A DNA stretch of 15,961 nucleotides from Bdellovibrionales bacterium (lineage in GTDB: Bacteria; Bdellovibrionota; Bdellovibrionia; Bdellovibrionales; UBA1609), in contig JBFWVI010000060.1 of the NCBI GenBank assembly GCA_050246815.1, positions 1 through 15,961 of the forward strand. The letters are read 5' to 3'. The number at the start of each line of letters is the position of its first letter. Position 1 is the first letter of the stretch. Below, one piece after another: positions 1 through 15,961 of the stretch. The notes beneath the pieces are model-generated. The model ran no database searches and was not told the origin of the DNA. It was given only the letters and a program-made list of their open reading frames with translations. The translations under genes and the position numbers were made by a program.

Positions 1-1694
1 GTACCCAGAACTGTCAGCAGGATTTCAGACCCTACGTCACCGGCCGTGAACTCTTCTGGTATGCCGTTACTAGAAAGCGAAAGCACCGTGTAGTACTCGC
101 TCGTGGCCGCGTCCACTGCCGTGGCGCGCGCATAATGCAAACCCATGTTGGCCTCTGCTCCGCCACCCGCAAGCGTCAGACTTTGCGTGCCCCAACCATA
201 ATGCTCAAGCGCACCGCACCCACCCGTGCAACTGGAGGCAATCGGCTCTCCAATATAAACTTTTTGGCCGTTCTTCATGCCATACGCGCAAACCGCAAAT
301 TGATAGTTGTAATAATTGTTGTTGCTCAAAGGCGTCTGGGTAGAAGAAGTAAAACTATAAAGACCCGAACTCGTCGTGACACTGCCTAAGACGCTGTAAC
401 CTTGATCCATGTAGTAGCCGCAGCTGTCATCACGGCCGCCCCCAGTGGTGGAGCCGCTGGTCGAAATTTTATAAAGCACATCCGCACCTGTGACTTCCGA
501 ACCACTAGCAAAAGGGGCCGCACCGTTTAAGTACGCCCACTTCAATTGCATCATTGGCACCGAACCGCCCTGATAATTCACGCTCAAATAGCCGCCGTGA
601 TTTGCAAAAGGTTCAACCAAACGAAATGGTGGGCGCATACCCGCAAAAGACTCTTCGCCTTCGTTGGCCATCCGATGATGATAAAAAGACAACTGCGTAC
701 CTGTGGTGGGATCGCAGTTCAGATTGGTCGCCCAACCACTATATGTTGCGGCGAAACCGCCAGCACTTGGATACAATCCGACACCCGGTCCAGCCGACAT
801 GGCATAAGCCAAGGGCGAGCTCAAAGTTGTATTGGCATAGACGCCATACCAACCGGGCATACCTTCTGTGTAGCTGCTTGCATAGCAAACTTGGTAAGGC
901 GCGAAGCTTGCGGGACCATTGGCGTCTTTGAAAAATCCCAAATAATAGGCGCCTGAAACGCGTGGCCGCACCTGAGTCACACTATTTTTTTCCTCGCGCT
1001 CATAGTAGCTGGCAGAGTCCATACGCAGCACGTGGTTACCCGTAGCCAGAGCTGGATGACCGATCGTCAAACCACTAAAGATGGTAATCCCAGATTCAAT
1101 CATCACATGAGTCATCGCGATATTATCGAGCACCAAAGTGTTGAACCAACCCGAAACCATATTGTTTTTGGTGACGGCCATACGAGGTTTTGTCAAATCT
1201 GGTGGTTGGAAGTAAGTGACCATCGTGCCGGTGGGACCTGACGTCGAGGAGTTAAAGTAGCGGCCCGCCACCCGCCCCTCTTTGGTCGCGGTGCCGGCCG
1301 GTGTTGCGGTTAGGTTCACCAATGTGGTGCCTTTATTCACCGTGACCAAAGCATCACCGTAAGTCAGCAAAAATGAGGCTCCGGCTGCCGTGTCAAAAAC
1401 ACCCATAAATTGAATTAAAATTCCAGGACCCGACGGAACATTAGGCACCACCAAATCAACCGGTGTGCCCCACGGCACGGGATTGCTATCAAACTCAAAT
1501 TCACGCACGATAGCTGGGCGACCAGGCACTTGAATATTCACGACTGCAAAAGTCAGCATGTCGCCGGCCGCAAGACTTGAACTTGAACCATTAAAAGGGA
1601 TGACCAATCGGACTTTTTCGCCGTCGGTGGCGCGCGTGCAGCTCACGCTTAAAATCGACAAGCCCAAAGCCAGAATCATCTTGTTCAACCGCAT
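1..1694 (-). CDS. Large putative lipoprotein of unknown function (partial, >564 aa, 3' end beyond left edge)
   Basis: Manual translation from ATG at 1694 stays open to position 1: MRLNKMILALGLSILSVS|CTRATDGEKVRLVIPFNG...EGRVAGRYFNSSTSGPTG...GDVGSEILLTVLG. Basic N-terminus, hydrophobic stretch and Cys19 form a slightly non-canonical lipobox. SD-like AAGGGGAG lies 7 nt upstream. Gly/Ser/Thr/aromatic-rich composition. Absent from the ORF track because no stop codon lies in the window. Confidence 0.85.
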   Translation of the reverse strand, partial: MRLNKMILALGLSILSVSCTRATDGEKVRLVIPFNGSSSSLAAGDMLTFAVVNIQVPGRPAIVREFEFDSNPVPWGTPVDLVVPNVPSGPGILIQFMGVFDTAAGASFLLTYGDALVTVNKGTTLVNLTATPAGTATKEGRVAGRYFNSSTSGPTGTMVTYFQPPDLTKPRMAVTKNNMVSGWFNTLVLDNIAMTHVMIESGITIFSGLTIGHPALATGNHVLRMDSASYYEREEKNSVTQVRPRVSGAYYLGFFKDANGPASFAPYQVCYASSYTEGMPGWYGVYANTTLSSPLAYAMSAGPGVGLYPSAGGFAATYSGWATNLNCDPTTGTQLSFYHHRMANEGEESFAGMRPPFRLVEPFANHGGYLSVNYQGGSVPMMQLKWAYLNGAAPFASGSEVTGADVLYKISTSGSTTGGGRDDSCGYYMDQGYSVLGSVTTSSGLYSFTSSTQTPLSNNNYYNYQFAVCAYGMKNGQKVYIGEPIASSCTGGCGALEHYGWGTQSLTLAGGGAEANMGLHYARATAVDAATSEYYTVLSLSSNGIPEEFTAGDVGSEILLTVLG

Positions 1695-1733
1695 ACGTTC
1701 TCCCCTTGAATCAACCGAACTGATCCACTCTAT

Positions 1734-1760
1734 TTTTCGGCCTTTTTAAGGGGCGACCTA
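1734..1760 (-). promoter_or_regulatory. Putative sigma-28 (FliA)-type promoter for the lipoprotein gene
   Basis: Minus strand reads TAGG-N15-GCCGAAAA versus consensus TAAA-N15-GCCGATAA. Spacing is exact and the -10 ends about 40 nt upstream of the ATG at 1694. Confidence 0.45.
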
Positions 1761-1806
1761 AGTCTTCGATCGCCTTAGATTGAGAAAATGGGAGGGGTTT
1801 AATGTG

Positions 1807-1833
1807 GGCGTTTTACTTTGAAGCAAATCCGCC
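1807..1833 (-). terminator. Imperfect stem-loop just downstream of the HTH gene stop
   Basis: Minus strand GGCG-GA-TTTGCT-TCAA-AGTAAA-A-CGCC can fold with one G:U pair and an internal loop. There is no U-tract, so it is at most a weak terminator or stabilising hairpin. Confidence 0.25.
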
Positions 1834-1838
1834 TCAAA

Positions 1839-2435
1839 TCAAAACAACTGTCGCAACACTAAAATAATCAAGGCGATTGAGTTGATTAAAAGCACCAGCT
1901 TCCACCCCACACCAATCACCATTTGGCGCTCCAGATCACCAGCAAGACGGCGATTTTCATCCTGCAAACGTTGCAGTTTCAAAGGAATTTCAGGATCTAT
2001 TTCGACAGGCTTGTGTGAGGGGACAGTTTTTTTCAATTTTTGCTCTAAATCCCGACACCAACGATCCATATTGGGGTCAGGCTCGCGCTTTAAAATAAGC
2101 TCCCTCCACTGTGACCAAGCCGGATCCTTGGTTTCAAGGGTTAAATACCACTGCAAAGACCGAACAACATGGGGCGGAACCTTGGCTTCATCCCTTGTCC
2201 ATCTGGTCCAAGCAGAAGGATCCACCAACAAAAGCTGACAGATTTTGCGCTGACTTAGTCCGAGAGTTTTTCTAGCCCCTTCTAGCCCCCCAATTTGACG
2301 CAAAATCACTCGGGCTTCGGATTCATAACGCAAACGTAGTGCTGTTTTGTGCCGGCCTGGAGCCCTCTCTAGAAACTCCAGTTCACGAATTGATGGCGGA
2401 ACCGTCGACGATGGTAAATCAAGTTGTGTATCCAT
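1839..2435 (-). CDS. XRE/Cro-like helix-turn-helix protein with coiled coil and C-terminal transmembrane anchor (~198 aa; start uncertain, 2435 or 2462)
   Basis: LEGARKTLGLSQRKICQLLLVDPSAWTRW fits an XRE HTH pattern. LKLQRLQDENRRLAGDLERQ is heptad-like. The C-terminus GWKLVLLINSIALIILVLRQLF is hydrophobic. The track extension to 2675 runs through AT-rich DNA and does not look protein-like. Confidence 0.75.
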   Translation of the reverse strand: MDTQLDLPSSTVPPSIRELEFLERAPGRHKTALRLRYESEARVILRQIGGLEGARKTLGLSQRKICQLLLVDPSAWTRWTRDEAKVPPHVVRSLQWYLTLETKDPAWSQWRELILKREPDPNMDRWCRDLEQKLKKTVPSHKPVEIDPEIPLKLQRLQDENRRLAGDLERQMVIGVGWKLVLLINSIALIILVLRQLF

Positions 2436-2498
2436 CCCTCGATGGTGAGCCACCGACGCCATCCGGTCAACTGGACCATGTGAAATAAGTTCCAAACA

Positions 2499-2533
2499 TT
2501 GTGTTTTACAATAATATTCGATGTAAAATACAA
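2499..2533. repeat. 12-bp inverted repeat (11/12 match) with 11-bp spacer; candidate operator or recombinase-binding site
   Basis: TTGTGTTTTACA (2499-2510), ATAATATTCGA, TGTAAAATACAA (2522-2533), within the HTH/recombinase divergent spacer. Confidence 0.5.
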
Positions 2534-2560
2534 CATAACGGTCATTCGGAACATTTTCTG

Positions 2561-2685
2561 AATCAGCTCGAATTAAACCCATCCCCCGACACCCAACTTT
2601 ACGAACTAGACTCAAGCTTTTAGTTATAAGTTTTAGTATTAAATTGTTGATTTTATGAATAATTTTGTGCTTCAATTAGCTCGAA
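2561..2685. repeat. 12-bp direct repeat (11/12 match), 113 bp apart
   Basis: AATCAGCTCGAA at 2561-2572 and AATTAGCTCGAA at 2674-2685 bracket a very AT-rich part of the spacer. Confidence 0.35.
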
Positions 2686-2781
2686 ACGGAGGATTTAAGT
2701 CTTTGACGCTAAGTGCCAAGTAATGACTCATTGTATATAAATATAAATTATTTATCATTAGCGACTTTGACTGATCGCATC

Positions 2782-3309
2782 ATGAGCAAGCAAAAACGTT
2801 ACTCTCTTAACCGCAATAAATATCTATTGGATCCAGAATATGAACGGCTCGACACAATCATCAAGTCGTTCATTGATCGCGATCCCCGCAACTGCCTGCT
2901 GATCACTTTGGCCCTACAGACTGGGGCCCGCGCCCAAGAGCTTCTCAATTTGGAGGCCACGGACTTGAATGATTTTGAACGCTCTCTTTTTATTCGCGGG
3001 ATTAAGGGCTCCAACGATCGCGAATTGCCTTTGCGGCCAGCCCTTTTTGATCAACTCAAAAGACAGCTTCCGGCCGCCGGCAAACTTTTTCCGATCAGTT
3101 ATCACCGCTTGTATCAGATCTGGAATATGTACCGCCCCGTGCCCAAGAAATTTCACTCGCTTCGCCATACATTTGCAATCAGGCTTTATCGCAAAACTAA
3201 GGACATTCGTCTGGTCCAGGTGGCGTTGGGCCACCGCAACATCACCAACACCATGATCTATGCGGATTACCTCTATAGCCAACAAGAGTTGCGTAAGCTG
3301 ATTCTGTAA
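2782..3309 (+). CDS. Tyrosine recombinase/integrase, catalytic domain only (~175 aa)
   Basis: Complete catalytic set: TGAR (Arg 2929), IKGS (Lys), HSLRH (His 3154, Arg 3163), LGH (His 3232) and TMIY (Tyr 3259). Likely start is ATG 2782 (MSKQKRYSLN); the track's GTG 2713 lies in AT-rich DNA. No room for an N-terminal core-binding domain. Confidence 0.92.
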   Translation: MSKQKRYSLNRNKYLLDPEYERLDTIIKSFIDRDPRNCLLITLALQTGARAQELLNLEATDLNDFERSLFIRGIKGSNDRELPLRPALFDQLKRQLPAAGKLFPISYHRLYQIWNMYRPVPKKFHSLRHTFAIRLYRKTKDIRLVQVALGHRNITNTMIYADYLYSQQELRKLIL

Positions 3310-3384
3310 TTGTTTTTGAGGGTTACGCTGGCTTAAGCTGTTACGTGGATCGGGCTAGACCTCTCGCCAGGGAAGGAGTTGAGA

Positions 3385-4068
3385 GTGCGCTTTTTATCTC
3401 TCATTATATATGGACTGTATTGGGCAGGTGATATGGCCGGGGCGCAGACACCCAGCCAAGTGTACGACCTACCTAAAGTGGTGGCTGTGCAAAACCGAGC
3501 TTTTCAGGTTCCGCGCGAATTTGCACTTCAGCTGGGGTACTTGCCGTCGGATGCCTTCAATAAAGGCTATGCCATTGGCGGCGCCTACACCCACTTCTTC
3601 AATGATTATTTTGGCTGGGAAGTGCTCAACGCAAGCTATGTGATCAACAGCGAGACCAATCTAAAAAAGGACCTTTTGGGCTGTTGCTCGGTCGACGTTG
3701 AAAACGTGGGTTTTGGCGGCGCCCTGGACTATATCGAATGGTACGCCCTGACCAGTGTGGTCTACACCCCGCTTTACACCAAGTCTTTGCTATTCAATAA
3801 AAAAATCGTGCACGGTGAGATCAGCTTTTTAGGCGGCGCAGGGGGTGTGAAATTTCATGAGACTGGCATGCGCTCGCTTGTCTCACTTGGTTTTTACGTG
3901 CGCTTTTTCTTGCGGCCCGAACGATCCTGGAAATTTGAATTCCGCGATCACATCTATTTTGAAAAATCTTTGGGTGCGGTGAACGCCATGGCACTCATGC
4001 TCAGCTATAGCTTTCACTTTGGCACCGATAAAAAAGTCCGCCCCGACCAGGAGAGCGATGAACTTTAG
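3385..4068 (+). CDS. Outer-membrane beta-barrel protein, myxobacterial/Bdellovibrio GltA/GltB/GltH-like family
   Basis: Signal-peptide-like N-terminus. VVAVQNR...EFALQLGYLPSDAFNKGYAIGGAYTHFFNDYFGWEV and YTPLYTKSLLF resemble this family. Alternating strands run through to LSYSFHF. SD GGAAGGAG (3371-3378) is 6 nt from GTG 3385, which favours that start over TTG 3379. Confidence 0.8.
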   Translation: MRFLSLIIYGLYWAGDMAGAQTPSQVYDLPKVVAVQNRAFQVPREFALQLGYLPSDAFNKGYAIGGAYTHFFNDYFGWEVLNASYVINSETNLKKDLLGCCSVDVENVGFGGALDYIEWYALTSVVYTPLYTKSLLFNKKIVHGEISFLGGAGGVKFHETGMRSLVSLGFYVRFFLRPERSWKFEFRDHIYFEKSLGAVNAMALMLSYSFHFGTDKKVRPDQESDEL

Positions 4069-5569
4069 CCGCGGGATTTATTTCATTTTGTTTTTTTTAA
4101 GCCTTTGGGCGGTGGCGCAAACCACCGAACTCAGTGGCAACTTTGCGCCAAAGACTGAAAAGCCTTTTGCTTATCGTCCTACGGATCCTTTATTTTGGGG
4201 CAAAATTGAAACTCTTCTGGCGGCCGCCGATTTTTCTTCTGTGGTCATCGAAGGCGCCAATCAAACCAAGCGATCCAACGAAAGCTCAGCAGATGGCGCC
4301 GAAGGCCGCTTGGCCACCGCGATGGGATTAAGCCGCAAAGGCCTGACTTTCGGTGCCACTTTGCTTTTGATTGATTTGGCAAAATCACGCTCAGGCACCA
4401 GCGTGGGCGAAGCCGCACTTTATGAACTTCAGCAGCTGACTTTGGCCCACAATTACGATCGCGACAACGTGGATGCGCTGATGAATTCCAACGAATTCGG
4501 CCCGCTTCACCCCGATATTCAGAGTTTTGTTTCGTTTTATCGCTATCTTTATAATCTGCGCTACGGTTTTAATCGGTGGGCTGAGACACAAAAAGTTTTA
4601 ATCAAAAAAGATTCTCCTTCGGACTTTGAGCTTCGCTATTGGACTGCCATCGGTGACGTGGCACGCAACAAAACGGACAAAGCCCAGGCCATCTTGAAAG
4701 AAATCTATGCCTCACCCCTAGCGCCGACTCGGGTGAAACAGCGGACTCAAGTGCAGTTGGCGCGCTTGGCTTTTGAGCGCGGACAATTCAACGAAGCCCA
4801 TGAGCTTTACCACTCTTTGCCCGAGTTTGGTGTTCGCGAAAAAGGCCGCATGCTGCTTGAAACCGCCTGGACTAAATACTACCTAAAAAGTTATGACAAA
4901 GCCCTAGGGCTATTGAACGCTTTGCGCGCCCCTTATTTCGCACAATCCTTAACACCCGAACGTTATGTCTTGGAAATCCTGATTTATCGCGACCTTTGTC
5001 AATACGATGCCGTTGAGAGTGCCGTTAAAAAATTCAAAGCCGCCTTTCGCAACTCTTTCCGCGCCATTCGTCAAAGGGCGCAGCTGCGCCAAGATACGGC
5101 CTTGGTCAATTTGGCTCTTATGGATTTAGACCTGCAAGACAAGGCCAACTTGATCGATCAGTTACGCCGCGAACGTGAAGAGCTGCTGCGATCCGGCTGG
5201 AAGGGACTCGCCTTTTACAAAGCCATGAACGATGAGTATTTGCGGCGCGATCGAACTCTAAGACGCGAACTGGATCTGCAACTTGAACCGCGAACCCGCG
5301 AAATCGCCGAATCATTTTTGGATACCGAAGAACAAATTCAGTTCCTGGATTACACCTCAAAGCTAGATGCACTTCGCATCGTTCGTGACGGGGAGGATCG
5401 CGATTATCAATCCGCTCCGATTTCATATCTGACGTTCGAATCCATTTATTGGCCGGTCGAGGATGAATTTTGGTGGGATGAATTTAAATTTTATAAAGTC
5501 CTGATCTCAAGCCAATGCAAGCAATCTAAATCACGCAAAGAAGAAAAAATGGAGCGAGAATTCGAATGA
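4058..5569 (+). CDS. gltC: GltC-like periplasmic TPR protein (~503 aa)
   Basis: Signal peptide (GIYFILFFLSLWAVAQ) and TPR helices. GltC-like segments LLETAWTKYYLKSYDKALGLLNALRAPYF...PERYVL...IYRDLCQYD and C-terminal YWPVEDEFWWDEFKFYKVLISSQC. ATG 4058 has a GGAG upstream and overlaps the barrel gene end. Confidence 0.75.
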   Translation: MNFSRGIYFILFFLSLWAVAQTTELSGNFAPKTEKPFAYRPTDPLFWGKIETLLAAADFSSVVIEGANQTKRSNESSADGAEGRLATAMGLSRKGLTFGATLLLIDLAKSRSGTSVGEAALYELQQLTLAHNYDRDNVDALMNSNEFGPLHPDIQSFVSFYRYLYNLRYGFNRWAETQKVLIKKDSPSDFELRYWTAIGDVARNKTDKAQAILKEIYASPLAPTRVKQRTQVQLARLAFERGQFNEAHELYHSLPEFGVREKGRMLLETAWTKYYLKSYDKALGLLNALRAPYFAQSLTPERYVLEILIYRDLCQYDAVESAVKKFKAAFRNSFRAIRQRAQLRQDTALVNLALMDLDLQDKANLIDQLRREREELLRSGWKGLAFYKAMNDEYLRRDRTLRRELDLQLEPRTREIAESFLDTEEQIQFLDYTSKLDALRIVRDGEDRDYQSAPISYLTFESIYWPVEDEFWWDEFKFYKVLISSQCKQSKSRKEEKMEREFE

Positions 5570-8500
5570 GACGGTGCTGGACCGCCCTCTTTTTCTTTGC
5601 CTTTCAAGCGGGCGCACAAGTGGCCGACGGCATAAGCCTAGAGCAAATGCGTCGAGACTTGGTCAAGCTTGATCGCAGCATCATGGAGACCAAAGACAAA
5701 ATTAAACTGGTCAAGGATGCGCGCTTTCTGCCTGACCTGTATTTTGCCTTAAGCGAATTTCTGGTCGACAAAAGTCGCTATATGTACGCCGTCAAAGTGG
5801 CTGAAAACCCCAAAACACCACCCGACGAATTGGACTTCACCGCCGAAAAGCGCCCAAAGCTTGAAGCTATCCAAGTCTACGAAACCATCATCGAGAAATT
5901 CCCAAAACTCGAAGAACGCGACAAAGCCGTGTTTTATCGCGCCCACGAGCTGCGCGAATTGGGAAGAACCGAAGATATGCTGAAGGCCTATCAACAGCTC
6001 TCAGTTGAATACCCAAACTCGGTCTATTGGACTGAAAGCCAAATCATCATCGGTGACTATCTATTCGAAGAGAAAAAAGATATGGACGCCGCCATGATCG
6101 TTTATCAAAAAATTCTGCAACGCCCACCAGGCCCCTTTACACCTCTGGCCAATTACAAAATAGGTTGGGTGCACGTCAATAAATCGCAGTTCGGTGATGC
6201 CGTGCTGGCCTATGAACGAGTTTTAATTCAAAACCAAGACGTGGATTTGGCTAAACTTCCCGCCGCTTACCGCAAAACCGACGTGCGCCGCGAAGCCTTG
6301 ATCGCTCTGGTGTGGCCGCTGTCGGAGCTGGATCCTAAAAAATTGGTGGGCCTTGCCAGTCGGCAGCGCAATTTGCTGGAGTACTTTTACACTCTGGCGC
6401 CAGACAAAATGAGTTACGAAAAGGTGCTTGCCCGCCTTGGTAAACGCCTGGAGCTTAAAAAACGGCACGTGGAAGCCACAAAAGTCTATTTCGAACTTCT
6501 GCGCATCACTTTGGATATGAAAGATCGTTTGGATGCAAGCGAACGCCTTTATGTCAGCATGAAAAATACGCAAAAAAATTGGCCCGTGCGAGGTTTGGTC
6601 CAAGAAACGGCCAAAACCCTGACTCTGGTCGAAGGCTCGCATGCCTTAAGTGATGCCGAACGTAAAAAGGCACTGTTTAACCTTGAAATATTCGCGCGCG
6701 ATGTGGCCACTCGCCAAAATAAACGAGCAAAGCAAACTCGCGCTAAAGAGGATTGGGACTGGACCATTCGCGATTACAATTTATATTTATCCCTGTTCCC
6801 GCAGAGCAAATATTTTCGGGCCATTAAGTTGAACTTAGCTGAAAGCTATTTCAATGCTGGGTATCCAGTTGAGGCCGGCCGCGAGTATGAATGGCTGGCC
6901 AAACACAGCAAAGGCGGAAAAAAGGAAAAAACATACTATGACTCTACGCTACAGTCCTATATCGCCGCCATTCGTCAGCAAAGCTCACTTTCGCGCCTAC
7001 AGCTAACAGAAGCTCGCCATGGTTTGCGCGAAGCCGGACGAAGTTTTATGGCGACTTACCCCACAGATCGTGCCAATTCGGATATCTTGTTCAATATTGG
7101 CCAAACATTTTACGACGAACGCCGCTTCCCTCAGGCCGTCACTGCCTTCAAGGAATATTTGAGCAAGTATCCCGGCGGTCCCAAAGCCTCTGTTAGTGCC
7201 AACCTGATTTTGGATGCCCACAACCAACGGGAAGATTACAAGGCCATAATCACCGATGGACGCGGTTTTTTAAACAATCCTAAAATCAAAGATCTCACCC
7301 TGCGCCGGCAAGTTCGCGAAATCGTGCAGCAGGCCGAAATGCGGGCCGTGCAAGTGGCAGCCGGTGACTTCTCCACTCCGGACTACGCAGCGAACCTTTT
7401 AAAACTGGCGCGAAAGTACAAAGGCTCAAGCTTGGGTGATCAAGCCCTGTACGAAGCTTTTACGGCTTTAAAAGCCAAAAAAGATCCCAAAGCCTATGAT
7501 TCAGGCGAACAGCTTTTAATGCAACATCGTGCCTCTAAATACGCATTAGAAGTCACCACCGTCATGGGTCAAATGGCCTTGGCAAGCGCCGACTTCAGGC
7601 GAGCGGCCTTGTATTTCGAAATTTTCAACGATCGCTATGGCAATCGACCAGAAGCCAAGGAATTTTTAAGCAATGCCGCCAAAATGCGTGAATTAATGGG
7701 CGATTACAAAATCGCCGCCAACGATTACAAAAAATTAGGCGACAATTTAAGTGCCGCACGCATGGACTTTTTATCGCGTGACTGGTCGGCACTCTTGCGC
7801 TCAGCCCCCTCGGCCGGGGGTATATACGCCTCTTACTATGAAGGTTTAGCCCAATATCGCTTGCGTGGCATCGGCCAAGCTCGCGCCGCTTTGGAGCGCG
7901 CCAGCCAAATGGGCAATGATTTTACCGAGCAAGAAATGGCCGCCCATTCTCTTTACCTGCTGTCGATGGCCGCCATGGAAAACTACAAAGCCATTCAAAT
8001 GAGCGAAGGGGCTGAAGCCAAGGCGGTCAATGACAAGGCGGCGCGCCTGAAAGCGCTTGAAGCACAACTCAACCGCGTGATTCATTTTGGCAATGGCCGA
8101 TGGACCATCGCCGCACTTTATAGTCTGGGACAAACCAACACCGAGTTTGCACGCTTCATTCGCAGTGCACCCACACCGAAAAATCTAAGTTCACAACAAA
8201 TGGCGCAGTATCGAAAAATTCTCGAACAACAAGCCTCGCAATATGAAAACAATGCGAAAAGACACTTCCAACAATGCCTCGGGAGCGCTGAAAAATTTGA
8301 AGTTTTAACTCGTTTCACGGCTGGTTGCCAATCGGCAGGTAAAATCGAAGTCGACGAAGCCAAGGAGGTCATGATCAGCGCACGGGCAGCTGACAGCACC
8401 CCTCCTGCCAGTGTGGCTTTGCGACGGCAGCTCCTCGACCAGCCCCGCAACACTGCACTCTTCTTGCAATTGGCAAATATCCACATAAAGGCTAAGGATT

Positions 8501-8793
8501 ACGCCATGACCGAACTGATCTTGAATCGAGCACTTGAAATTGAACCCAACAGCGCCGCTCTAATGGCAGATGTCGGCGTGATCAATCTGTATAAGCGCGA
8601 CTACGTCAGCGCCAAAGCCTGGTTTGAAAAGGCCTTGGCCAAAGACCCCAAAAACGCCTTGGCCCTTCGCGGAATGGCCGGACTATTCAGACAGTTCCGC
8701 TTCCCGACCAAATACCAGCAGTATGCCACGAAAGCCAAAGCCGCTGGACCCGCCAAAGGCCTCACCCACCCCATGGTCCTTGGGGCAGATTAG
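5566..8793 (+). CDS. gltD: GltD/AgmU-like large TPR protein (1075 aa) with extra C-terminal GltE/AglT-like TPR tail
   Basis: Signal peptide. AgmU-type repeats (FPKLEERDKAVFYRAHE, YPNSVYWTESQIIIGDYLFE, ANYKIGWVHVN, WTIAALYSLGQ...FIRSAPTPKNL). ATGA overlap with the gltC-like stop. Located upstream of a gltG-like gene. Confidence 0.7.
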   Translation: MRRCWTALFFFAFQAGAQVADGISLEQMRRDLVKLDRSIMETKDKIKLVKDARFLPDLYFALSEFLVDKSRYMYAVKVAENPKTPPDELDFTAEKRPKLEAIQVYETIIEKFPKLEERDKAVFYRAHELRELGRTEDMLKAYQQLSVEYPNSVYWTESQIIIGDYLFEEKKDMDAAMIVYQKILQRPPGPFTPLANYKIGWVHVNKSQFGDAVLAYERVLIQNQDVDLAKLPAAYRKTDVRREALIALVWPLSELDPKKLVGLASRQRNLLEYFYTLAPDKMSYEKVLARLGKRLELKKRHVEATKVYFELLRITLDMKDRLDASERLYVSMKNTQKNWPVRGLVQETAKTLTLVEGSHALSDAERKKALFNLEIFARDVATRQNKRAKQTRAKEDWDWTIRDYNLYLSLFPQSKYFRAIKLNLAESYFNAGYPVEAGREYEWLAKHSKGGKKEKTYYDSTLQSYIAAIRQQSSLSRLQLTEARHGLREAGRSFMATYPTDRANSDILFNIGQTFYDERRFPQAVTAFKEYLSKYPGGPKASVSANLILDAHNQREDYKAIITDGRGFLNNPKIKDLTLRRQVREIVQQAEMRAVQVAAGDFSTPDYAANLLKLARKYKGSSLGDQALYEAFTALKAKKDPKAYDSGEQLLMQHRASKYALEVTTVMGQMALASADFRRAALYFEIFNDRYGNRPEAKEFLSNAAKMRELMGDYKIAANDYKKLGDNLSAARMDFLSRDWSALLRSAPSAGGIYASYYEGLAQYRLRGIGQARAALERASQMGNDFTEQEMAAHSLYLLSMAAMENYKAIQMSEGAEAKAVNDKAARLKALEAQLNRVIHFGNGRWTIAALYSLGQTNTEFARFIRSAPTPKNLSSQQMAQYRKILEQQASQYENNAKRHFQQCLGSAEKFEVLTRFTAGCQSAGKIEVDEAKEVMISARAADSTPPASVALRRQLLDQPRNTALFLQLANIHIKAKDYAMTELILNRALEIEPNSAALMADVGVINLYKRDYVSAKAWFEKALAKDPKNALALRGMAGLFRQFRFPTKYQQYATKAKAAGPAKGLTHPMVLGAD

Positions 8794-8805
8794 CAATCTC
8801 TGCTC

Positions 8806-8832
8806 TCGAGTCTTGGCGCTTTTTTCCGAAAA
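8806..8832 (+). promoter_or_regulatory. Putative internal sigma-28-type promoter upstream of the gltG-like gene
   Basis: TCGAGTCT-N11-TCCGAAAA versus extended consensus TAAAGTTT-N11-GCCGATAA. It lies in the 53-bp gap ahead of SD GAGG and ATG 8847; the implied leader would be very short. Confidence 0.3.
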
Positions 8833-8846
8833 GATAACGAGGTCCT

Positions 8847-10826
8847 ATGACATTTGAAAAACTTAGGCTCGACCAGCCCTTTCACTTGCAAGTGATGGAA
8901 AACGGCAACCTGGTTTTCGAGCACACTTTTTTAGAAGCCCCGATCACGATCGGCCGCAGCGTTTCGTGCAGTGTACCTTTGACCAAGTACAACTGGATTT
9001 CGCGTCAGCATTTTCAAGTGGCCATGGTTGATGGCCGATGGGTCGCCACCGATTTGAATAGCGCCAACGGCATGATGTACAACGGCCAAGCTCACAGCCA
9101 GTTGGTTCTGGAATCCGGTATGGTGCTTGAAGTGGGCCCACTTCAATTTCGATTCGAATTTTCCACCTTGCACCAAAAACCCGAGGCACAAACTTTGCGT
9201 TCGCATGAAAGTGCTTACCCAACTTTAAACAACGCAGTTAAGCCTCATGTGCCGCCAGCCGTACACGCGCCTAGGGCGGCCTTCGCACCGCCGCGTCCGG
9301 TGAATTTCAGAAATGTGCGTGGTCTTAAGTTAAGCCCGGCTTGGTTTGAAAAAAGCCCCGAACACAGTCGCATTCTTAAACGCGAAAGTGGCTGCGCCGC
9401 CTTGTCGCTAAACACCATCTCGCCGCAAGTCGCGCGAGCGCCGGCGCAAACACGAGTGTTCGAAGTTTTTTTAACTTGGAAGGACCAGGTTTATGACTCA
9501 AGACTTTATTTCGCAGGCGACAATATCAGCATTGGCACTGATACCGATGATCTGTATGCACCAAACTTAAAGGGCTCATTTTTGCTTGGTCGATTTGATG
9601 GCCAGCACGCCGACATTTATTTAAGCAAGGGGGCCATGGGCACTGTTTACCGCGGCAATCAGCGCCAGAACACTCTTGAGCAGCTGTTAACTGGAGAATT
9701 GATCCCCCGTCGTGGCAAAGGTTATTCGCTTTCTCTAAGTCCTAGCGATCGTTGTGAAATCGAATTAGGCTCCAATTTAAAATTGCACGCCCGTTATGCA
9801 ACTGCACCACGTCAACTTTCGAAAACTTTGGCCCGCGAACCTGATCACCTGATGCGCAAATCCCTGACATACTCAGGATCTGTGCACTTGGCGTTTTTAC
9901 TTTTTGCTCTTTTGATGGCTCCGGCGCAAACCATTCCGAAAGTGAAACACTTACCCCCACGTGTGGCAAAACTTCTGACTCCCAAGGAAGCACCGGTTGA
10001 AACTCCAAAACCCAAAGAGGCCGCCCCACCACCTGAACCTCTGAAGCAGGCCAAAGAAGAGCCACCTAAAAAACGAATCGAGCCCAAACGCCCACGACCA
10101 CAACCCAAAAAAGTTGTGATCCGCACCAACGAGAAAATGAAAGTGATCAATCGGCTGCCCAAAGTTGCCATTCAAAAAACCGTTGACGCGGCCAAACCTC
10201 CGCCGGACATCAGGCAGCTGGGTGCCTTGGCGGCCCTGGGCGCTTTGGGCACACCAACCGTAAGCGACACCAAAAATCTGCCCGTTGCCATCAATGTCAA
10301 CGCCAATGCGGGTGGGCAAACTTCGCTCTCCACCACCGGCGTGATCGGCGCGCTGAAAGCCAAAGGCGGCAAACTAGCCGCAGGCGGATCCCCTGGAGTT
10401 AAAACCACAGGTAAAGGTTTTGGCTCAGGCAGTGAGTATGGAGTGCAGGGACTCAAGGGAGTGGCTGGCAATCGCGGCATCGCGGCCGCCGTGATCGGCT
10501 CGCCCAAACTGATGACGATTGACCGCACCGAAGGGCTCACGCAAAAACAGGTGATGGACGTGGTCAAGCAGCATGTCGGTAAAATTCAGCAATGTTACGA
10601 ACGCTCGCTTCTTTCAAAGCCGAATCTGGCTGGGCGAGTCGAATATGAATGGGAAATCAGCCCCGTTGGCTTGGTCAAATGGATCAAGGTTAAGCGCAGT
10701 GATCTTTCTGAAGCGGACATCTTGAATAATTGCATTTCCGCCATCTTCAGGAAGATGAAATTTCCTGTCGCCAGCAATGGCGAAACAACCAAACCCACCA
10801 TTGGTTTCCCTTTCGGCAGATTGTGA
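8847..10826 (+). CDS. gltG: GltG/PglI-like protein: FHA domain, TM helix, Pro/Gly-rich linker, AgmX/PglI (TonB_C-like) C-terminal domain
   Basis: FHA motifs IGRS...ISRQH...DLNSANG. TM SGSVHLAFLLFALLM carries the TonB/TolA-type S-x3-H (9873-9887). PKEAPVETPKPKEAAPPPEP linker. C-terminus VVKQHVGKIQQCYERSL...LAGRVEYEWEI...NCISAIFRKMKFP...FPF. Confidence 0.85.
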   Translation: MTFEKLRLDQPFHLQVMENGNLVFEHTFLEAPITIGRSVSCSVPLTKYNWISRQHFQVAMVDGRWVATDLNSANGMMYNGQAHSQLVLESGMVLEVGPLQFRFEFSTLHQKPEAQTLRSHESAYPTLNNAVKPHVPPAVHAPRAAFAPPRPVNFRNVRGLKLSPAWFEKSPEHSRILKRESGCAALSLNTISPQVARAPAQTRVFEVFLTWKDQVYDSRLYFAGDNISIGTDTDDLYAPNLKGSFLLGRFDGQHADIYLSKGAMGTVYRGNQRQNTLEQLLTGELIPRRGKGYSLSLSPSDRCEIELGSNLKLHARYATAPRQLSKTLAREPDHLMRKSLTYSGSVHLAFLLFALLMAPAQTIPKVKHLPPRVAKLLTPKEAPVETPKPKEAAPPPEPLKQAKEEPPKKRIEPKRPRPQPKKVVIRTNEKMKVINRLPKVAIQKTVDAAKPPPDIRQLGALAALGALGTPTVSDTKNLPVAINVNANAGGQTSLSTTGVIGALKAKGGKLAAGGSPGVKTTGKGFGSGSEYGVQGLKGVAGNRGIAAAVIGSPKLMTIDRTEGLTQKQVMDVVKQHVGKIQQCYERSLLSKPNLAGRVEYEWEISPVGLVKWIKVKRSDLSEADILNNCISAIFRKMKFPVASNGETTKPTIGFPFGRL

Positions 10827-10905
10827 CCATTGAACACAGTCGTTTTACTCGCAGAGTCAAGATTACCGCTGGACTAAATTATGAGACCCGCCGCACAATA
10901 TTCCA

Positions 10906-11334
10906 ATGTCGCGATCAAAACGTAAATTAAAAAATTTAATCCTAAGACCCTATTTGCAATTTGGTATCATTTTGCAGGTCGTATCATTGGTGTTGACCTC
11001 TTGTGGCGCGACATTGGCATTTTCGTGGCTATTTTTCTACAGAAACCGTCTGGCACTAATTATTCAAGCTGAAGGTGGAAATGAGAATTGGTATCTTTAT
11101 GTGGTAACTGGGGCGACCCTCATTGTCATAGGAATCATTTCAATTTTCGTCACGCTTTTAATCACCCACCGCATAGTTGGCCCCATGGTCGCCATACATA
11201 GACAGCTAGATTCACTTATCGACGGAGACTTTAGCAACGAAGTACGGCTTAGAAAACATGATGAATTTGCGGACGTAGCTGAAAAGGTGAATTTACTGAC
11301 GCGCAAGTTGCGTGGACAGGGCAAAACCGACTAG
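10906..11334 (+). CDS. Small two-TM membrane protein with a C-terminal HAMP domain and no output domain
   Basis: Two hydrophobic helices followed by THRIVGPMVAIHRQLDSLIDGDFSNEVRLRKHDEFADVAEKVNLL (HAMP pattern P...GD...DE...N). The protein ends about 10 aa later. Confidence 0.75.
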   Translation: MSRSKRKLKNLILRPYLQFGIILQVVSLVLTSCGATLAFSWLFFYRNRLALIIQAEGGNENWYLYVVTGATLIVIGIISIFVTLLITHRIVGPMVAIHRQLDSLIDGDFSNEVRLRKHDEFADVAEKVNLLTRKLRGQGKTD

Positions 11335-11382
11335 TACGCCTGCTGTAGTTCCGGATGGGAACAAAAATGATCAGCTTTATAA

Positions 11383-12789
11383 TTAATCTAGATGTGACTC
11401 CAGTTTTTTTATTTTCTTTCTGAACCTGTCTTGGCGATCGGCTAAGTCTTGGGTTGCCGAAACCAAAGGCGCTATTAGCTGAGCGTAAGACACCGTGCAA
11501 TACTCTGTAGCACAATTCACTGCCGCGCTCAGCTCAGGAACAGAAGCAATTTCTTGGGCAATTAAGCCAACCTGCCGCTTATCGGGCATTTTAATAAGCC
11601 GATAGGTGTAGGCGTTTATGGACTTAAACTGCGTCGCCTTAAACGATAAGGGCGCAATCGCTGCCTTAAGTCGCCGATCTGAAAGATTTTGCCATGCCGA
11701 CGTACCCCCGGCCGTACCATTCACCCAAAAGGCATAATCATTGGCAGGGCGCGCATCGTCACCACCAATGCGCACATCAGTTCGACTCACGCCCCCAGAA
11801 ATCATGTGGTCAATAATAAAAGTGCTTGCAACGTTACTGCCGCCAAGCTCGAGAGTTTGGTTGCTGTTAGTTGGGCGAAAGCTCCAAGCTGAAGTCGCAC
11901 TACTTAGGTTTAAGAAACTTGTGCCGTCTGTACTTTTGATGGCGAAGCGATAAGGAGTGACTTCATTCAAAGCATACCCAACAGTAAGTTGGCGGCTGTC
12001 AGACAATAGGGTTACTGGTGGAAAAGCCGAATTTGTGTTGAAGACATAACGATGGTTTTCAGGAATGACAAACATGGCTGAGGGACCTCCTGAATTAATC
12101 GACATCGTGATGCCACCACTACCTTCAAGACTACCGAAAATGACAGAATTTCGACTTCCACTCGATGTGTCGCGGACTTCAAAGGTGGCGCTGGGATCGT
12201 CAGATTGAATCCCTACACTTCCTGTCTGGCGAAAAATCTGGTTGCCGCTCAACATACGCCATTGATTTTGATCAAAATTAACAGCGATACAGCTGGTGAG
12301 TCGACCTAAGTTATTGATCTCAACAGAAACCACTCGGTTTCGCGTCCATGTCTTAAGTTGTCCATCGACAATTTTCTGCATATCCACGGTCAGGGTTGAA
12401 ACCCCATCAAGGGCACCTGCTGAAGACGGGATAAAGCCGCTCATCCGGATTGCAGCGATCGAAATTGTTCCACGACCATAGTTCGCGTTTGGATTCGCAA
12501 CTATGGTCTCAAAAATTGCTGAATTATCTGGCTTACGTAAAATAGTACGAGTCAGAGCTTGAGTACGAAGGTCCTCAGGCCCACCAACCCAGTTTTGGTT
12601 GCAGCGGCTATTTTCTGCCAAAAAATGGCCAATCGCTCCTACAACGTTATCCACATCTTCGGCGTAAGAAGTATTAACCAAATTTGATCTTAATTTTGGT
12701 AACAGCTGCAATGATCCCGCCAAAAGAACCATGACAATTAAGCTAATCGTCAAAATCAACGCAATAGATGAAACCCCCCTATTCTTCAT
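11383..12789 (-). CDS. PilX/GspK-like prepilin (no E5) fused to tail-fibre-like body and peptidase S74 chaperone (~468 aa)
   Basis: Start ATG 12789 with AAGGA 8 nt upstream. Leader MKNRG|VSSIALILTISLIVMVLLAG. Cys pair NSRCN...LTSCI. GSVGIQ fibre motif. FWVNGTAGGTSAWQNL-SDRRLK (11665-11682), GLIAQE, and a terminal coiled coil. Confidence 0.8.
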   Translation of the reverse strand: MKNRGVSSIALILTISLIVMVLLAGSLQLLPKLRSNLVNTSYAEDVDNVVGAIGHFLAENSRCNQNWVGGPEDLRTQALTRTILRKPDNSAIFETIVANPNANYGRGTISIAAIRMSGFIPSSAGALDGVSTLTVDMQKIVDGQLKTWTRNRVVSVEINNLGRLTSCIAVNFDQNQWRMLSGNQIFRQTGSVGIQSDDPSATFEVRDTSSGSRNSVIFGSLEGSGGITMSINSGGPSAMFVIPENHRYVFNTNSAFPPVTLLSDSRQLTVGYALNEVTPYRFAIKSTDGTSFLNLSSATSAWSFRPTNSNQTLELGGSNVASTFIIDHMISGGVSRTDVRIGGDDARPANDYAFWVNGTAGGTSAWQNLSDRRLKAAIAPLSFKATQFKSINAYTYRLIKMPDKRQVGLIAQEIASVPELSAAVNCATEYCTVSYAQLIAPLVSATQDLADRQDRFRKKIKKLESHLD

Positions 12790-14170
12790 CGGCGACATCC
12801 TTTTTCTTTGTACAAGCTTTGAGCTGGGGTGTTGTTTTACAAATTTTACTCTTGAGTTGCTCAAAGTCTCTTTGCTGCGCTTCGACCTCTACACTCAACT
12901 GCTGCAAACTTTTGGCAAGGGCCGGAATAATCTCGGAATAACGAATACTTTTGTATGGACCAATCTGGCCTGCGATCGGTTCAAATTCCTTAGGGATATC
13001 TTGAGCAATAAAACCCAGCTGAGTTTCCGCTGATTGGCGCATAATATAGGACACCGGTCTAAGCAGGCGCAATTCATTCAATCCTATTTCAAGATCTGAA
13101 ACATCGGTCTTCAAGCGCGCGTCCGAGGCAACCATCCACGGGGTGAGCCCACCCGCCTTTCCCGCCACGTAAAACTTCATGCCCGCAGCTGAGCCGCCAA
13201 CCGCAAAGTTACTGCGCACGTGGATCCCACGCACATCCGATTGACCCGAGATTCGTAGCCCATTTAACTTTTGATCACCAACGGAACCCAAGCCGCGAGT
13301 AACGTCAAACTCCCAAGCACGGTTTAAAGTCCCCGTTTCAAATTTCATCAAGGGCAAGGTACTAACGCCATCATCACAAATATTCAGGGCTCCATACGCA
13401 AAATTCGTGCAGAAACCAGTCCCGAGGGGGCCATAATTCAAGTAAAAGTCGTTTAAGAAAGACATGCCCTCGTTGTTATTGGATACAATATTGATCATAT
13501 TCCCAGATGGAGAAATTCTCCAGCCAGGAGGACCAGAGTTATTCTCGTATATAAGATTAAAGTCTCCGTTGACCGCCAAAGAATACGGGGGTTCAGGCAA
13601 TTGGCCGACCCCTACGTTTTGCGCCATTGAAAAAAGACTGTTCACATTGTTACTCCAAAGACTGCTTTGATCCGTTATACCACTGCAGCTGATAATATCG
13701 AACGTAGCCGGAGCAACAACCACTAGCAGGGGCAGTTGATCACGCCTTATATTTCCAGGCGGATATTCGACCTCCATTTCAAGAATCGCTAAGCCGGTCA
13801 GATTAGGTGCAGGTACATTACTAAATGCATTAAATCCAAATAATCGAATGCCATTAAATTGGACGGGACCTGGCTGGTTCCCGAAATTATCGACAAGCAC
13901 TTGAACGTCGTTACTATCCAAAATATCGGCCGCAATTTTATTGATAGATGGATTTAAACTCAGATTTGCAAAATTTTTATTGCATTGCGCCTCAACAGAA
14001 AAAAATTGTCGCATTTCAAAAATGCGATTTCTCAAAATAGTAAATTGATTTTCGGCTTTCATTTGATTGTAGAAGATGCCGCTCACATTTAATACGCCAA
14101 ATATGCCAGCTGCAACCAAAGCAATCGAAACTAGAATTTCAATTAAAGTAAACCCCCTCCGGTCACTCAT
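12779..14170 (-). CDS. Type IV prepilin-like N-terminus fused to tail-fibre-like body and peptidase S74 chaperone (~463 aa)
   Basis: Start ATG 14170 with GAGG 6 nt upstream, overlapping the upstream stop by 8 nt. Leader MSDRRG|FTLIEILVSIALV. Cys pair EAQCN...IISCS. NVGVG motif. FYVAGKAGGLTPWMVA-SDARLK (13109-13126), LRPVSY, GFIAQD, coiled coil and ICKTTPQLKAC. Confidence 0.88.
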   Translation of the reverse strand: MSDRRGFTLIEILVSIALVAAGIFGVLNVSGIFYNQMKAENQFTILRNRIFEMRQFFSVEAQCNKNFANLSLNPSINKIAADILDSNDVQVLVDNFGNQPGPVQFNGIRLFGFNAFSNVPAPNLTGLAILEMEVEYPPGNIRRDQLPLLVVVAPATFDIISCSGITDQSSLWSNNVNSLFSMAQNVGVGQLPEPPYSLAVNGDFNLIYENNSGPPGWRISPSGNMINIVSNNNEGMSFLNDFYLNYGPLGTGFCTNFAYGALNICDDGVSTLPLMKFETGTLNRAWEFDVTRGLGSVGDQKLNGLRISGQSDVRGIHVRSNFAVGGSAAGMKFYVAGKAGGLTPWMVASDARLKTDVSDLEIGLNELRLLRPVSYIMRQSAETQLGFIAQDIPKEFEPIAGQIGPYKSIRYSEIIPALAKSLQQLSVEVEAQQRDFEQLKSKICKTTPQLKACTKKKDVADEE

Positions 14171-15536
14171 GACAGGCCTCATGATTTGGACTTTCAAGGC
14201 AAAGGGAGCTTATGAATTCATCGAATTCAGACTCGACCTTCCTCTGAGCTTGGTGAAGCTCTTTGATTGCATCAATCATTACCGCAGTCAGGGCATCGAT
14301 CTGGATTTTTTTATAACTACCATTCTGATCCACAATTTCGGGCAAGATCTTCTCGACTTCTTGCGCAATGAATCCATAACGAATAATGTTTTTTGGATCG
14401 GAATAATACCGATAACTGACTGGGCGCAACTTTTTGATTATTTTTAAGGGATCTTGAATTTGTCTAATATCTTTCTTCAAACGCAGATCGGACGCCACAA
14501 TCCAGCCTGTTGTCCCGCCCGCAGTACCATCAACAAAAAAATTATTCGTCCCAGCAGAACTGACATCGTCACCAACCAGCACTTGGGGATAGATCACAAG
14601 ATTGGTAGGCCCGTCTGCGACTAAATAATTATGTCTTAGGCGCAAGTCATTTCCAGACACAATAAATGACCACCGATTTGAATCACCATGATTAAGATGA
14701 AGAGCCGATTGATCATCGACGTCTTGCCTAAGATCTGCCACTGCGCTGTAAGGCGGAGCCAAATGAATGCCAAGACGTCCGCTGCTCACACCAAAAGTCG
14801 GGCGTACCGACGTGCCAAATAGAAGATCGGCGTTATTGGTTGTACGAAATATTTTATCCGTATTGTTGGTCTCAAGTATCAATTGTGGTCCACCTGAAGT
14901 CCCAAATAAAACAGGTAGTCGCCCCACATCCAACGGCGCCGTAGGCATGTTGACACCTATACCTACGGCCTTGGGCGAGTAAATATCATTTGGATCGCTC
15001 TGAGAGTATTGCCAGAGATCAAACGGAGAGCTGCCACACTTAGTAATAGCCTGATCGGTAATATTGCGGGTCACAAGCACTATGGAATTTCTTTGAACAG
15101 TGACATCCCGGCCCATTTGACTGTCCCAGCGGGACAAATCCAGTTGTATTTGCAGAAAACCCCGTTCGGATGGGGCAGCAGCGTCTAAAGGCCGAAAGTC
15201 GGTCAGCCGTATGGCGCTGAAGCGAACACTATTCTGGCCCACAATTCGGTCAACTTCAAATTGCCGCAATCCGTCTGGATTTAAGAGAAAATTTAAATTG
15301 ACCGGAAAGGCCGCGGTTACGGTCGTTCTTAGCGCCGAAGTACAATTATTGGTATTCGAGATAAAATGTATAAATTCACGATAAAGCTCCTCGGCTGCAT
15401 TTTGGCTTTCTGCAGACTGGCTTAGTTTGGTCGAATCAACGGCGAAGGTGGCAATAACAACGGTCAGCAGCCCAACGATGAGGGCTGATAAAGCGAGCTC
15501 TACAATGGTAAACCCGTTTTTTTTGTTTCTAAACAT
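14163..15536 (-). CDS. Type IV prepilin-like N-terminus fused to tail-fibre-like body and peptidase S74 chaperone (~457 aa)
   Basis: Leader MFRNKKNG|FTIVELALSALIVGLL (ATG 15536; GTG 15545 is an alternative). Cys pair TNNCT...ITKCG. AVGIG...PTAPLDV fibre motif. FFVDGTAGGTTGWIVA-SDLRLK (14475-14492), LRPVSY, YGFIAQEVEKILPEIV, and LCLESPNHEAC. Confidence 0.88.
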   Translation of the reverse strand: MFRNKKNGFTIVELALSALIVGLLTVVIATFAVDSTKLSQSAESQNAAEELYREFIHFISNTNNCTSALRTTVTAAFPVNLNFLLNPDGLRQFEVDRIVGQNSVRFSAIRLTDFRPLDAAAPSERGFLQIQLDLSRWDSQMGRDVTVQRNSIVLVTRNITDQAITKCGSSPFDLWQYSQSDPNDIYSPKAVGIGVNMPTAPLDVGRLPVLFGTSGGPQLILETNNTDKIFRTTNNADLLFGTSVRPTFGVSSGRLGIHLAPPYSAVADLRQDVDDQSALHLNHGDSNRWSFIVSGNDLRLRHNYLVADGPTNLVIYPQVLVGDDVSSAGTNNFFVDGTAGGTTGWIVASDLRLKKDIRQIQDPLKIIKKLRPVSYRYYSDPKNIIRYGFIAQEVEKILPEIVDQNGSYKKIQIDALTAVMIDAIKELHQAQRKVESEFDEFISSLCLESPNHEACHE

Positions 15537-15841
15537 CCATCCCACGCACTACGGCCTAAATTGTCTAATATTTTTTGTACGACCTCACCAAATTATTACA
15601 ATTTTCAATTATGATCATACTAATTGGCTCAAAATAGGATTGTCGTGGCAATTAACACTCATCAGAGCCCCCTCGTCGCAGACAGACGCTCACAATCGAT
15701 TCGTAGAAAATACGGCGCTCTACTTTAGAACTTTACCCAAAACCCTATATAGCCATTGGTCCAGTTGTGATTATGAAGCTAGCTCGATGGTTTTGAATCA
15801 ACATAAAATAGATGTACAGGTCACTGGGGAGATCAAAACTT
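15537..15841. promoter_or_regulatory. Divergent intergenic/promoter region between the pilin-fibre operon and the aglR-like gene
   Basis: About 305 bp, AT-richer, between two divergent starts. Contains the palindrome TATGATCATA (15610-15619) overlapping CAATTA...TAATTG (15606-15626). Confidence 0.55.
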
Positions 15842-15961
15842 ATGTTACAAAAGCTGCTTCAACACTACAACGAAGGCGGATTTTTCATGCACTTGATTCT
15901 GCTCACTTCGTTTGTGGGTATAGGAATCATCATTGAACGCATGAAGGTGTTGTCAGCCGCC
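15842..15961 (+). CDS. MotA/TolQ/ExbB proton-channel family protein, AglR-like (partial, first 40 codons)
   Basis: Manual translation from ATG 15842: MLQKLLQHYNEGGFFMHLILLTSFVGIGIIIERMKVLSAA. This is the GG..M..I...S......IIER N-terminal TM1 pattern of the family. SD GGGGAG at 15826-15831. Not in the ORF track because it runs off the edge. Confidence 0.8.
   Translation, partial: MLQKLLQHYNEGGFFMHLILLTSFVGIGIIIERMKVLSAA

Follow-up and report, generated by a model that had tools for sequence, protein, structure and literature searches.

A tandem triplet of pilin-S74 genes from a Bdellovibrionales bacterium as a candidate heterotrimeric pilus-tip fiber

Do three adjacent genes, each encoding a pilin head joined to a phage-type fiber, build one fiber together or three fibers apart? 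The question is raised by genes A, B, and C in a 15,961-nucleotide stretch of DNA (hereafter the window) from Bdellovibrionales bacterium, which is probably predatory (GenBank assembly GCA_050246815.1, contig JBFWVI010000060.1, positions 1 to 15,961 of the forward strand). An initial annotation had proposed a heterotrimeric pilus-tip fiber, arguing from matched chain lengths and from the order of the genes, of which the first two encode a Glu at mature residue 5 (Glu5) and the last does not. We consider it probable that A, B, and C co-assemble 1:1:1 into one triple-stranded phage-like fiber that would act as a pilus tip adhesin and primer. A heterotrimer is favored because triplets occur in excess, are duplicated as units, and keep matched lengths; the Glu5 argument fell away. 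The genes and their catalytic Ser codons are as follows.

14163 to 15536, reverse strand: gene A, 457 amino acids; leader MFRNKKNG, cleavage after Gly, mature FTIVE from nucleotide 15512
14490 to 14492, reverse strand: catalytic Ser codon of A (SDLRLK), predicted self-cleavage site
12779 to 14170, reverse strand: gene B, 463 amino acids; leader MSDRRG, mature FTLIE from nucleotide 14152
13124 to 13126, reverse strand: catalytic Ser codon of B (SDARLK)
11383 to 12789, reverse strand: gene C, 468 amino acids; leader MKNRG, mature VSSIA from nucleotide 12774, no Glu5
11680 to 11682, reverse strand: catalytic Ser codon of C (SDRRLK)

Each chain consists of a prepilin leader, a pilin head, a fiber, and, with its SDxRLK motif intact, an S74 intramolecular chaperone. 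The gene translations bear out the mature N termini given in the initial annotation, including the lack of Glu5 in the last, as well as the 340, 342, and 364 residues that precede the catalytic Ser (mature residue 341 in A, where it forms a dyad with Lys346, 343 in B, and 365 in C) and the position of the second head Cys (Cys pairs at mature residues 57/159 in A, 57/156 in B, and 58/162 in C). The span had been placed at 11680 to 15536; its left edge is the Ser codon of C, and the gene itself runs on to 11383. The start of B overlaps the stop of A by 8 nucleotides and the start of C overlaps the stop of B by 11, as annotated, given the likeliest B and C start codons; these lengths rest on the choice of start, because several in-frame candidates are possible. 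In each chain the pilin head extends as far as the second Cys. In A the fiber covers about mature residues 160 to 340, and a coiled coil ends the chain. The second Cys and the Ser lie 182 (A), 187 (B), and 203 (C) residues apart, C being the longest chain, with a fiber that exceeds those of A and B by 16 to 21 residues. Mutual identity is 21 to 27% over the aligned pilin and S74 columns, and the three genes are the only PF13884 matches in the window's genome, which is 99% complete.

Run sizes, ancestry, and chain lengths

No close orthologs of A, B, or C were found in the protein collection, where the best non-self matches cover the S74 part and 2 of 119 matches (P0013 and P0024) looked pilin-led. 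Relatives were searched with PF13884 across the phylum (401 genomes, best 150 matches) and across three families with complete lists. From the complete lists we took nearly all matches with open reading frames of about 280 to 1,050 amino acids, leaving out a few small non-pilin paralogs of genome G017; added to these were 20 picks from the phylum's best 150 matches, two short loci, and 40 regions out of the best 150 pilin-profile matches, some of them selected for a tandem look. The surveyed loci themselves supplied the sequences for both profiles, pilin and S74, and a second profile search, swamped by giant fiber-repeat proteins, gained little. Large pilin genes in a row with at least one S74 gene were counted as a run.

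The 68 pilin-S74 runs, from 53 genomes, comprised 49 single genes, 5 pairs, 12 triplets, and 2 sextets, with none of four or five genes; locus L101, scored as single, really holds at least two genes cut by the contig end. Counted per genome, there were 37 singles, 5 pairs, 9 triplets, and 2 sextets. Both sextets are 3 + 3 arrangements with a gap in the middle. S74 was present in all three genes of 9 of the 12 triplets, and a further one (L188) has two S74 genes and a third gene truncated where the contig ends. Thirteen all-S74 triplets, from eight genomes, were counted as the set for the tests of Glu5 and length. Under a geometric model of duplication one would expect 12.5 pairs and 4.8 triplets (P = 0.001, or 0.014 with all-S74 triplets only); both values overstate the significance, since kin genomes are not independent. 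As a control, the non-pilin S74 genes of the same loci formed 64, 5, 0, 1, and 1 runs of one to five genes and differed from the pilin-S74 genes (Fisher P = 0.012, one N-gap artifact dropped), the control windows being short and size-biased.

Same-family pilins that lack S74 formed 22, 1, 8, and 1 runs of one to four genes, and in a further 20 regions 18, 3, and 1 runs of one to three. These pilins also favor one or three, so the number three goes with the pilin head.

In an IQ-TREE phylogeny of the pilin and S74 columns, the triplet genes formed a clade of their own in seven of eight genomes, often beside a single-gene relative; support by the Shimodaira-Hasegawa-like approximate likelihood ratio test (SH-aLRT) was 91.7 for the window's A/B/C clade and only 54 for the L057 triplet. 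Three genomes carry several triplets (four, two, and two), and there the genes cluster by position with support of 0.97 to 1.0, so divergence of the three genes came before their copying as one unit. Judged from these trees, triplets apparently arose from singles repeatedly, in at least seven apparently independent transitions.

Triplet members keep matched lengths at identities of 17 to 78%. Across the 13 all-S74 triplets, the range from mature start to Ser had a median of 24 residues and was at most 45 in 11, versus a median of 217 for random triples drawn from 48 singles. Three random single-gene homologs span 24 residues or fewer in 0.7% of draws, and the length matching of the window exceeds chance. 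Among protein pairs at 15 to 25% identity, the median length difference was 23.5 within triplets (n = 8) versus 146 between singles (n = 492). In the two-gene runs the differences were 8, 10, and 16 (three matched) and 43 and 275 (two not).

These data bear on two other ways of putting the chains together. A, B, and C could each form a homotrimeric tip pilin of its own (AAA, BBB, and CCC) that can cap a pilus, together a small tandem repertoire of alternative adhesins like the arrays of MAT fibers; we regard this as rather unlikely. Such a repertoire agrees with the 49 of 68 runs that are single genes, which must self-trimerize if they are trimeric, with the occurrence of pairs, with the complete S74 and intact dyad of each chain, and with the description of CofB as a homotrimeric tip initiator (PMC6048534). 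It leaves unexplained the excess of 3 and 3 + 3 over 2, 4, and 5, which the non-pilin S74 controls do not have, the position-wise conservation through re-duplication, and the agreement in length among chains of low identity, given that related singles vary freely. Alternatively, three could be set solely by the pilin heads, as priming positions, with loose chain choice in the fiber and a mix of homo- and heterotrimers (AAB, ABC). Pairs could then build 2:1 trimers, same-family pilins without S74 mostly stand in ones or threes and are often unmatched in length, and no strong hetero-specific charge code was seen in the coiled coils described below. Even so, we hold loose mixing to be distinctly improbable: interdigitated fibers at 21 to 27% identity would be unlikely to accept any partner, and position-specific orthology points to fixed roles.

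Domain evidence, known systems, and assembly

A, B, and C all exceed the Pfam cutoff for S74, whereas N_methyl exceeds it in B only, A falling under the cutoff and C giving no match; TIGR02532 is over cutoff in B, and no NCBIfam equivalog is for A, B, or C. C matches the pilin-family profile at an E value of 1e-19, a match that is not independent since C was in the seed. The leaders have the makeup described for class III signal peptides, hydrophilic and ending in Gly or Ala, with 20 to 25 hydrophobic residues after them and often Glu5 (PMC10191384). Across the pilin-S74 family the two head Cys are nearly invariant, and the Ser and Lys of the S74 motif are invariant across 48 aligned sequences. 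Each C terminus combines PF13884, the SDxxxK dyad, and a terminal coiled coil, as in S74 chaperones, and trimer-dependent self-cleavage is predicted.

An AlphaFold2 monomer model was made of A only, from an input alignment of 24 sequences. The head (predicted local distance difference test [pLDDT] 80 to 93) has a pilin fold, with a long α1 helix (residues 9 to 59) on an antiparallel β-meander; the middle (residues 199 to 348) is unfolded at a pLDDT of about 30; and the S74 domain, with its terminal helix, is confident at about 90. The S74 fold resembles the MyRF ICA (Z = 9.2, root mean square deviation [rmsd] 3.1, 109 residues aligned) and the chaperones of K1F (Z = 7.6) and the T5 L-fiber (Z = 6.8), and Foldseek matches to the model were to the S74 domain only. 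In the Protein Data Bank, the family profile matched the MAT fiber protein Bd2133 at E = 1.2e-11 and a distal subunit of a phage long tail fiber at E = 2.5e-20, and the fiber, not confidently modeled as a monomer, was matched by profile to 8OND and 8OJN. CofB and TcpB were not among the profile or structure matches listed.

The folds nearest to the head are GspI-type pseudopilins, at middling Z scores of 5.5 to 5.8 (XcpV, Z = 5.8, rmsd 3.5, 86 residues aligned). This likeness would suit a prepilin-like N terminus that does no more than anchor the chain in the membrane or serve its export, in a type II secretion pseudopilus for instance, with no display of the fiber on an extended pilus. So would the lack of adjacent pilus genes and the presence in the genome of a GspG-K operon, Tad-like pilins, and four secretins. 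We give this reading hardly any credence, as the head is a full pilin head with its two nearly invariant Cys and the one-or-three rule tracks the pilin head.

Both halves of the chain belong to systems with a rule of three. S74 domains are described as trimerizing, setting three chains in register, and cleaving themselves (PMC10769870), and type IV filaments as starting from a three-pilin tip that is either a homotrimer (CofB; PMC6048534) or a heterotrimer (GspIJK, PilABC, KilLMN; PMC8179133, PMC12075869). Their fusion would unite S74 trimer folding with the three-pilin filament tip. The initial annotation saw in a heterotrimer a way to reconcile the two; homotrimeric tip pilins such as CofB (PMC6048534) make it dispensable for that purpose. 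In CofB of enterotoxigenic Escherichia coli CFA/III and TcpB of Vibrio cholerae TCP, three pilin heads and intertwined C-terminal β domains form the tip initiator (PMC6048534, PMC8179133). These are, however, homotrimers with a type IVb head, a β-repeat, and an H-type lectin domain and have no self-cleaving chaperone, whereas A, B, and C are three different chains with short leaders, a phage-type fiber, and S74.

The MAT fibers, an S74 subfamily of Bdellovibrio bacteriovorus, are described as trimeric β-helical fibers that end in an SDxxxK S74 and have a VGIGxxxP-type loop motif (Caulton et al. 2024, PMC10769870). They differ in having a signal peptide, a conserved 130-amino-acid β-rich N-terminal domain, a typical length of about 1,000 amino acids, and symmetric trimers (PMC10769870); the prepilin leader and pilin head of A, B, and C set these apart from the MAT description. 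The main text of that paper contains "pilin" and "hetero" 0 times (PMC10769870). S74 has been reported behind an N-terminal methylation motif among modular pilins (architecture IPR012902-IPR030392, 29 proteins in Dataset S1; Raynaud et al. 2021, PMC8179133), where it is seen as a grafted peptidase activity; the relevant passages of that paper mention no fiber, trimer chaperone, triplet, or heterotrimer. MYRF is reported to trimerize (PMC11223767); a MYRF heterotrimer was looked for in that paper as a precedent and not found.

GspI/J/K, PilA/B/C of Streptococcus sanguinis, and KilL/M/N are likewise sets of three minor pilins, all different and encoded in one cluster, with a Glu5-less cap (PMC10191384, PMC12075869), and the initial annotation had likened the heads to GspI/J/K and PilV/W/X. 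Those systems consist of distinct conserved subunit types, whereas the pilin-S74 triplets are equal-sized paralogs of one family, here one clade without an NCBIfam equivalog, with repeated origins, no fixed Glu5 order, and a third of a shared fiber on each chain. K1F endosialidase, the T5 L-fiber, and the MYRF ICA share the S74 fold and the Ser-Lys motif but lack a pilin fusion. Phage S74 fibers and spikes such as K1F endosialidase and the T5 L-fiber are homotrimers.

The Glu5 order, by contrast with the lengths, did not generalize. In transcription order, residue 5 of the 13 triplets reads EEA (window), DEE, EQE (twice), EEE, SSS (three times), ASS, QQM (twice), EME, and AGA, so that E/E/non-E is found in the window alone and Glu5 is absent altogether from 7 of 13. 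Five of the 13 triplets (four of eight genomes) have exactly one non-Glu member, versus 43% expected by chance, and E/E/non-E is expected in 14% of draws at the frequency of Glu5 in singles (33 of 48). A rule of Glu5 order for triplets was rejected on these near-chance frequencies. The survey for triplets with a Glu5-less gene last, proposed with the initial annotation, instead returned mostly single genes (49 of 68 runs), an outcome that the annotation itself had named as refuting and that speaks against its scheme as a general rule. C may nevertheless be a cap subunit; tip complexes are described as capped by a Glu5-less subunit (PMC10191384).

The terminal coiled coils were scored by g-e' charge pairs in the aligned sequences. 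Self-pairing scores averaged +0.74 in singles (64% positive, n = 47) and -0.02 in triplet lineages (n = 8; rank test P = 0.007), which weakly supports a loss of homotrimer selection rather than a hetero code.

Several observations weigh against 1:1:1 co-assembly. Most runs are single genes, the five pairs are unexplained by a strict 1:1:1 rule, and a plain test of 11 against 5 gave P = 0.105. One triplet (L035) has S74 in one of its three genes, and another (L181) consists of two S74 genes and a member without the S74 core. The genes of the L069 triplet do not form a clade, FastTree separated A from B and C, and two triplets are poorly matched in length (ranges of 117 and 73). In the coiled coils, hetero pairing in its best order reaches only +0.33 and pair members 0.10; the singles that are kin to two of the triplet lineages score 0, so a lineage effect may underlie the signal. 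The longest chain is C, yet a cap nearest the fiber would be expected to be the shortest. No pilus machinery gene adjoins the triplet, and the low monomer confidence in the fiber of A may stem from its 24-sequence alignment.

Under the heterotrimer model that we favor, the pilin helix would anchor each chain in the inner membrane, where prepilin peptidase would remove the leader. In the periplasm the three S74 domains would come together, fix the register, zipper up the three fiber segments, and release themselves by cleavage ahead of the Ser. The three pilin helices would fill the top three filament positions, possibly with the Glu5-less C uppermost, and major pilins joining from below would drive the fiber out by way of a secretin, to attach to prey or surfaces. 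In favor of the model, the genome encodes a prepilin peptidase, the four secretins, a PilA-like pilin, and assembly ATPases. By analogy with CofB and TcpB, single-gene relatives would make homotrimeric tip fibers in which one chain occupies all three positions, and triplets would be repeated local triplications specialized by position. More broadly, we give an even chance to the proposal that Bdellovibrio-type bacteria repeatedly turned a homotrimeric tip fiber into an obligate heterotrimer by local triplication, with S74 picking the chains as collagen propeptides do and the resulting tip asymmetric and prey-binding.

If so, predatory bacteria would gain a pilus-tip route to display phage-like receptor-binding fibers, among them a heterotrimeric S74 fiber, which bears on the question of prey recognition. 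The one-or-three pattern would be a genomic readout of the three-position tip, and the homomer-to-heteromer transitions, at least seven of them apparently independent, a natural test set for the evolution of asymmetric complexes. A literature search that mostly left subscription papers aside and did not take in the supplementary tables of Caulton et al. 2024, where further fiber architectures are listed, found no pilin-S74 triplets, one-or-three pattern, or heterotrimeric S74 fiber. The parts are already known, and the recurrent one-or-three organization and likely heterotrimeric S74 fiber are likely new.

Genomic setting and related gene arrays

On the forward strand of the window, an operon like the gliding-motility genes of Myxococcus (3379 to 11334) converges on the triplet and encodes a TIGR04565 outer membrane β-barrel, a GltC-like protein, a large TPR protein, a GltG-like FHA/AgmX protein, and a HAMP protein. 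A 198-amino-acid tyrosine recombinase with a catalytic domain only (2713 to 3309, forward strand) is divergent from an HTH-like gene at 1839 to 2675, and a lipoprotein-like open reading frame of at least 564 amino acids without a Pfam or NCBIfam match (3 to 1694, reverse strand) runs off the contig end. A prophage origin of the triplet is unsupported: the neighbors resemble gliding-motility genes, no phage genes flank it in the window, and the sole recombinase is 8 kb away. A promoter and terminator scan gave no signal above chance level, and a search for PilY1 gave no match, nor did its positive control.

The same genome has two further three-pilin clusters without S74, G000:C8:8637-12135 and G000:C1:24895-27868, of which the former reads E/E/non-E and the latter non-E/E/E. 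Many genomes of one genus in the same order have 12 to 15 S74 genes each, and 13 are reported for B. bacteriovorus (PMC10769870); these counts, like the adjacent genes of gliding-motility type, point to Bdellovibrionota.

Some surveyed arrays depart from the common plan. The first gene of the L181 triplet (L181:7080-8186) encodes a pilin head and a terminal coiled coil without a distal fiber and S74 core in frame, a gap that could be either a real deletion or an assembly collapse. L168 and L093:4918-7008 hold pilin-fiber genes with a different, non-S74 C-terminal domain, those of L168 forming a length-matched triplet (550, 536, and 536 amino acids). P0013, a pilin-S74 protein, has a precomputed match to PF04917, the N-terminal family of shufflon PilV, which hints that it may be connected with the type IVb tip adhesins of plasmids. 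At L073, five tandem non-pilin S74 fiber genes (lengths 1011, 949, and 965, and 1135 and 1140) are possibly a MAT-type triplet plus a pair. Finally, the clade of L022 to L026 and L034 has the S74 motif SSRxxKK in place of SDxRLK and includes four triplets in one genome, with Glu5 in 0 of those 12 genes.

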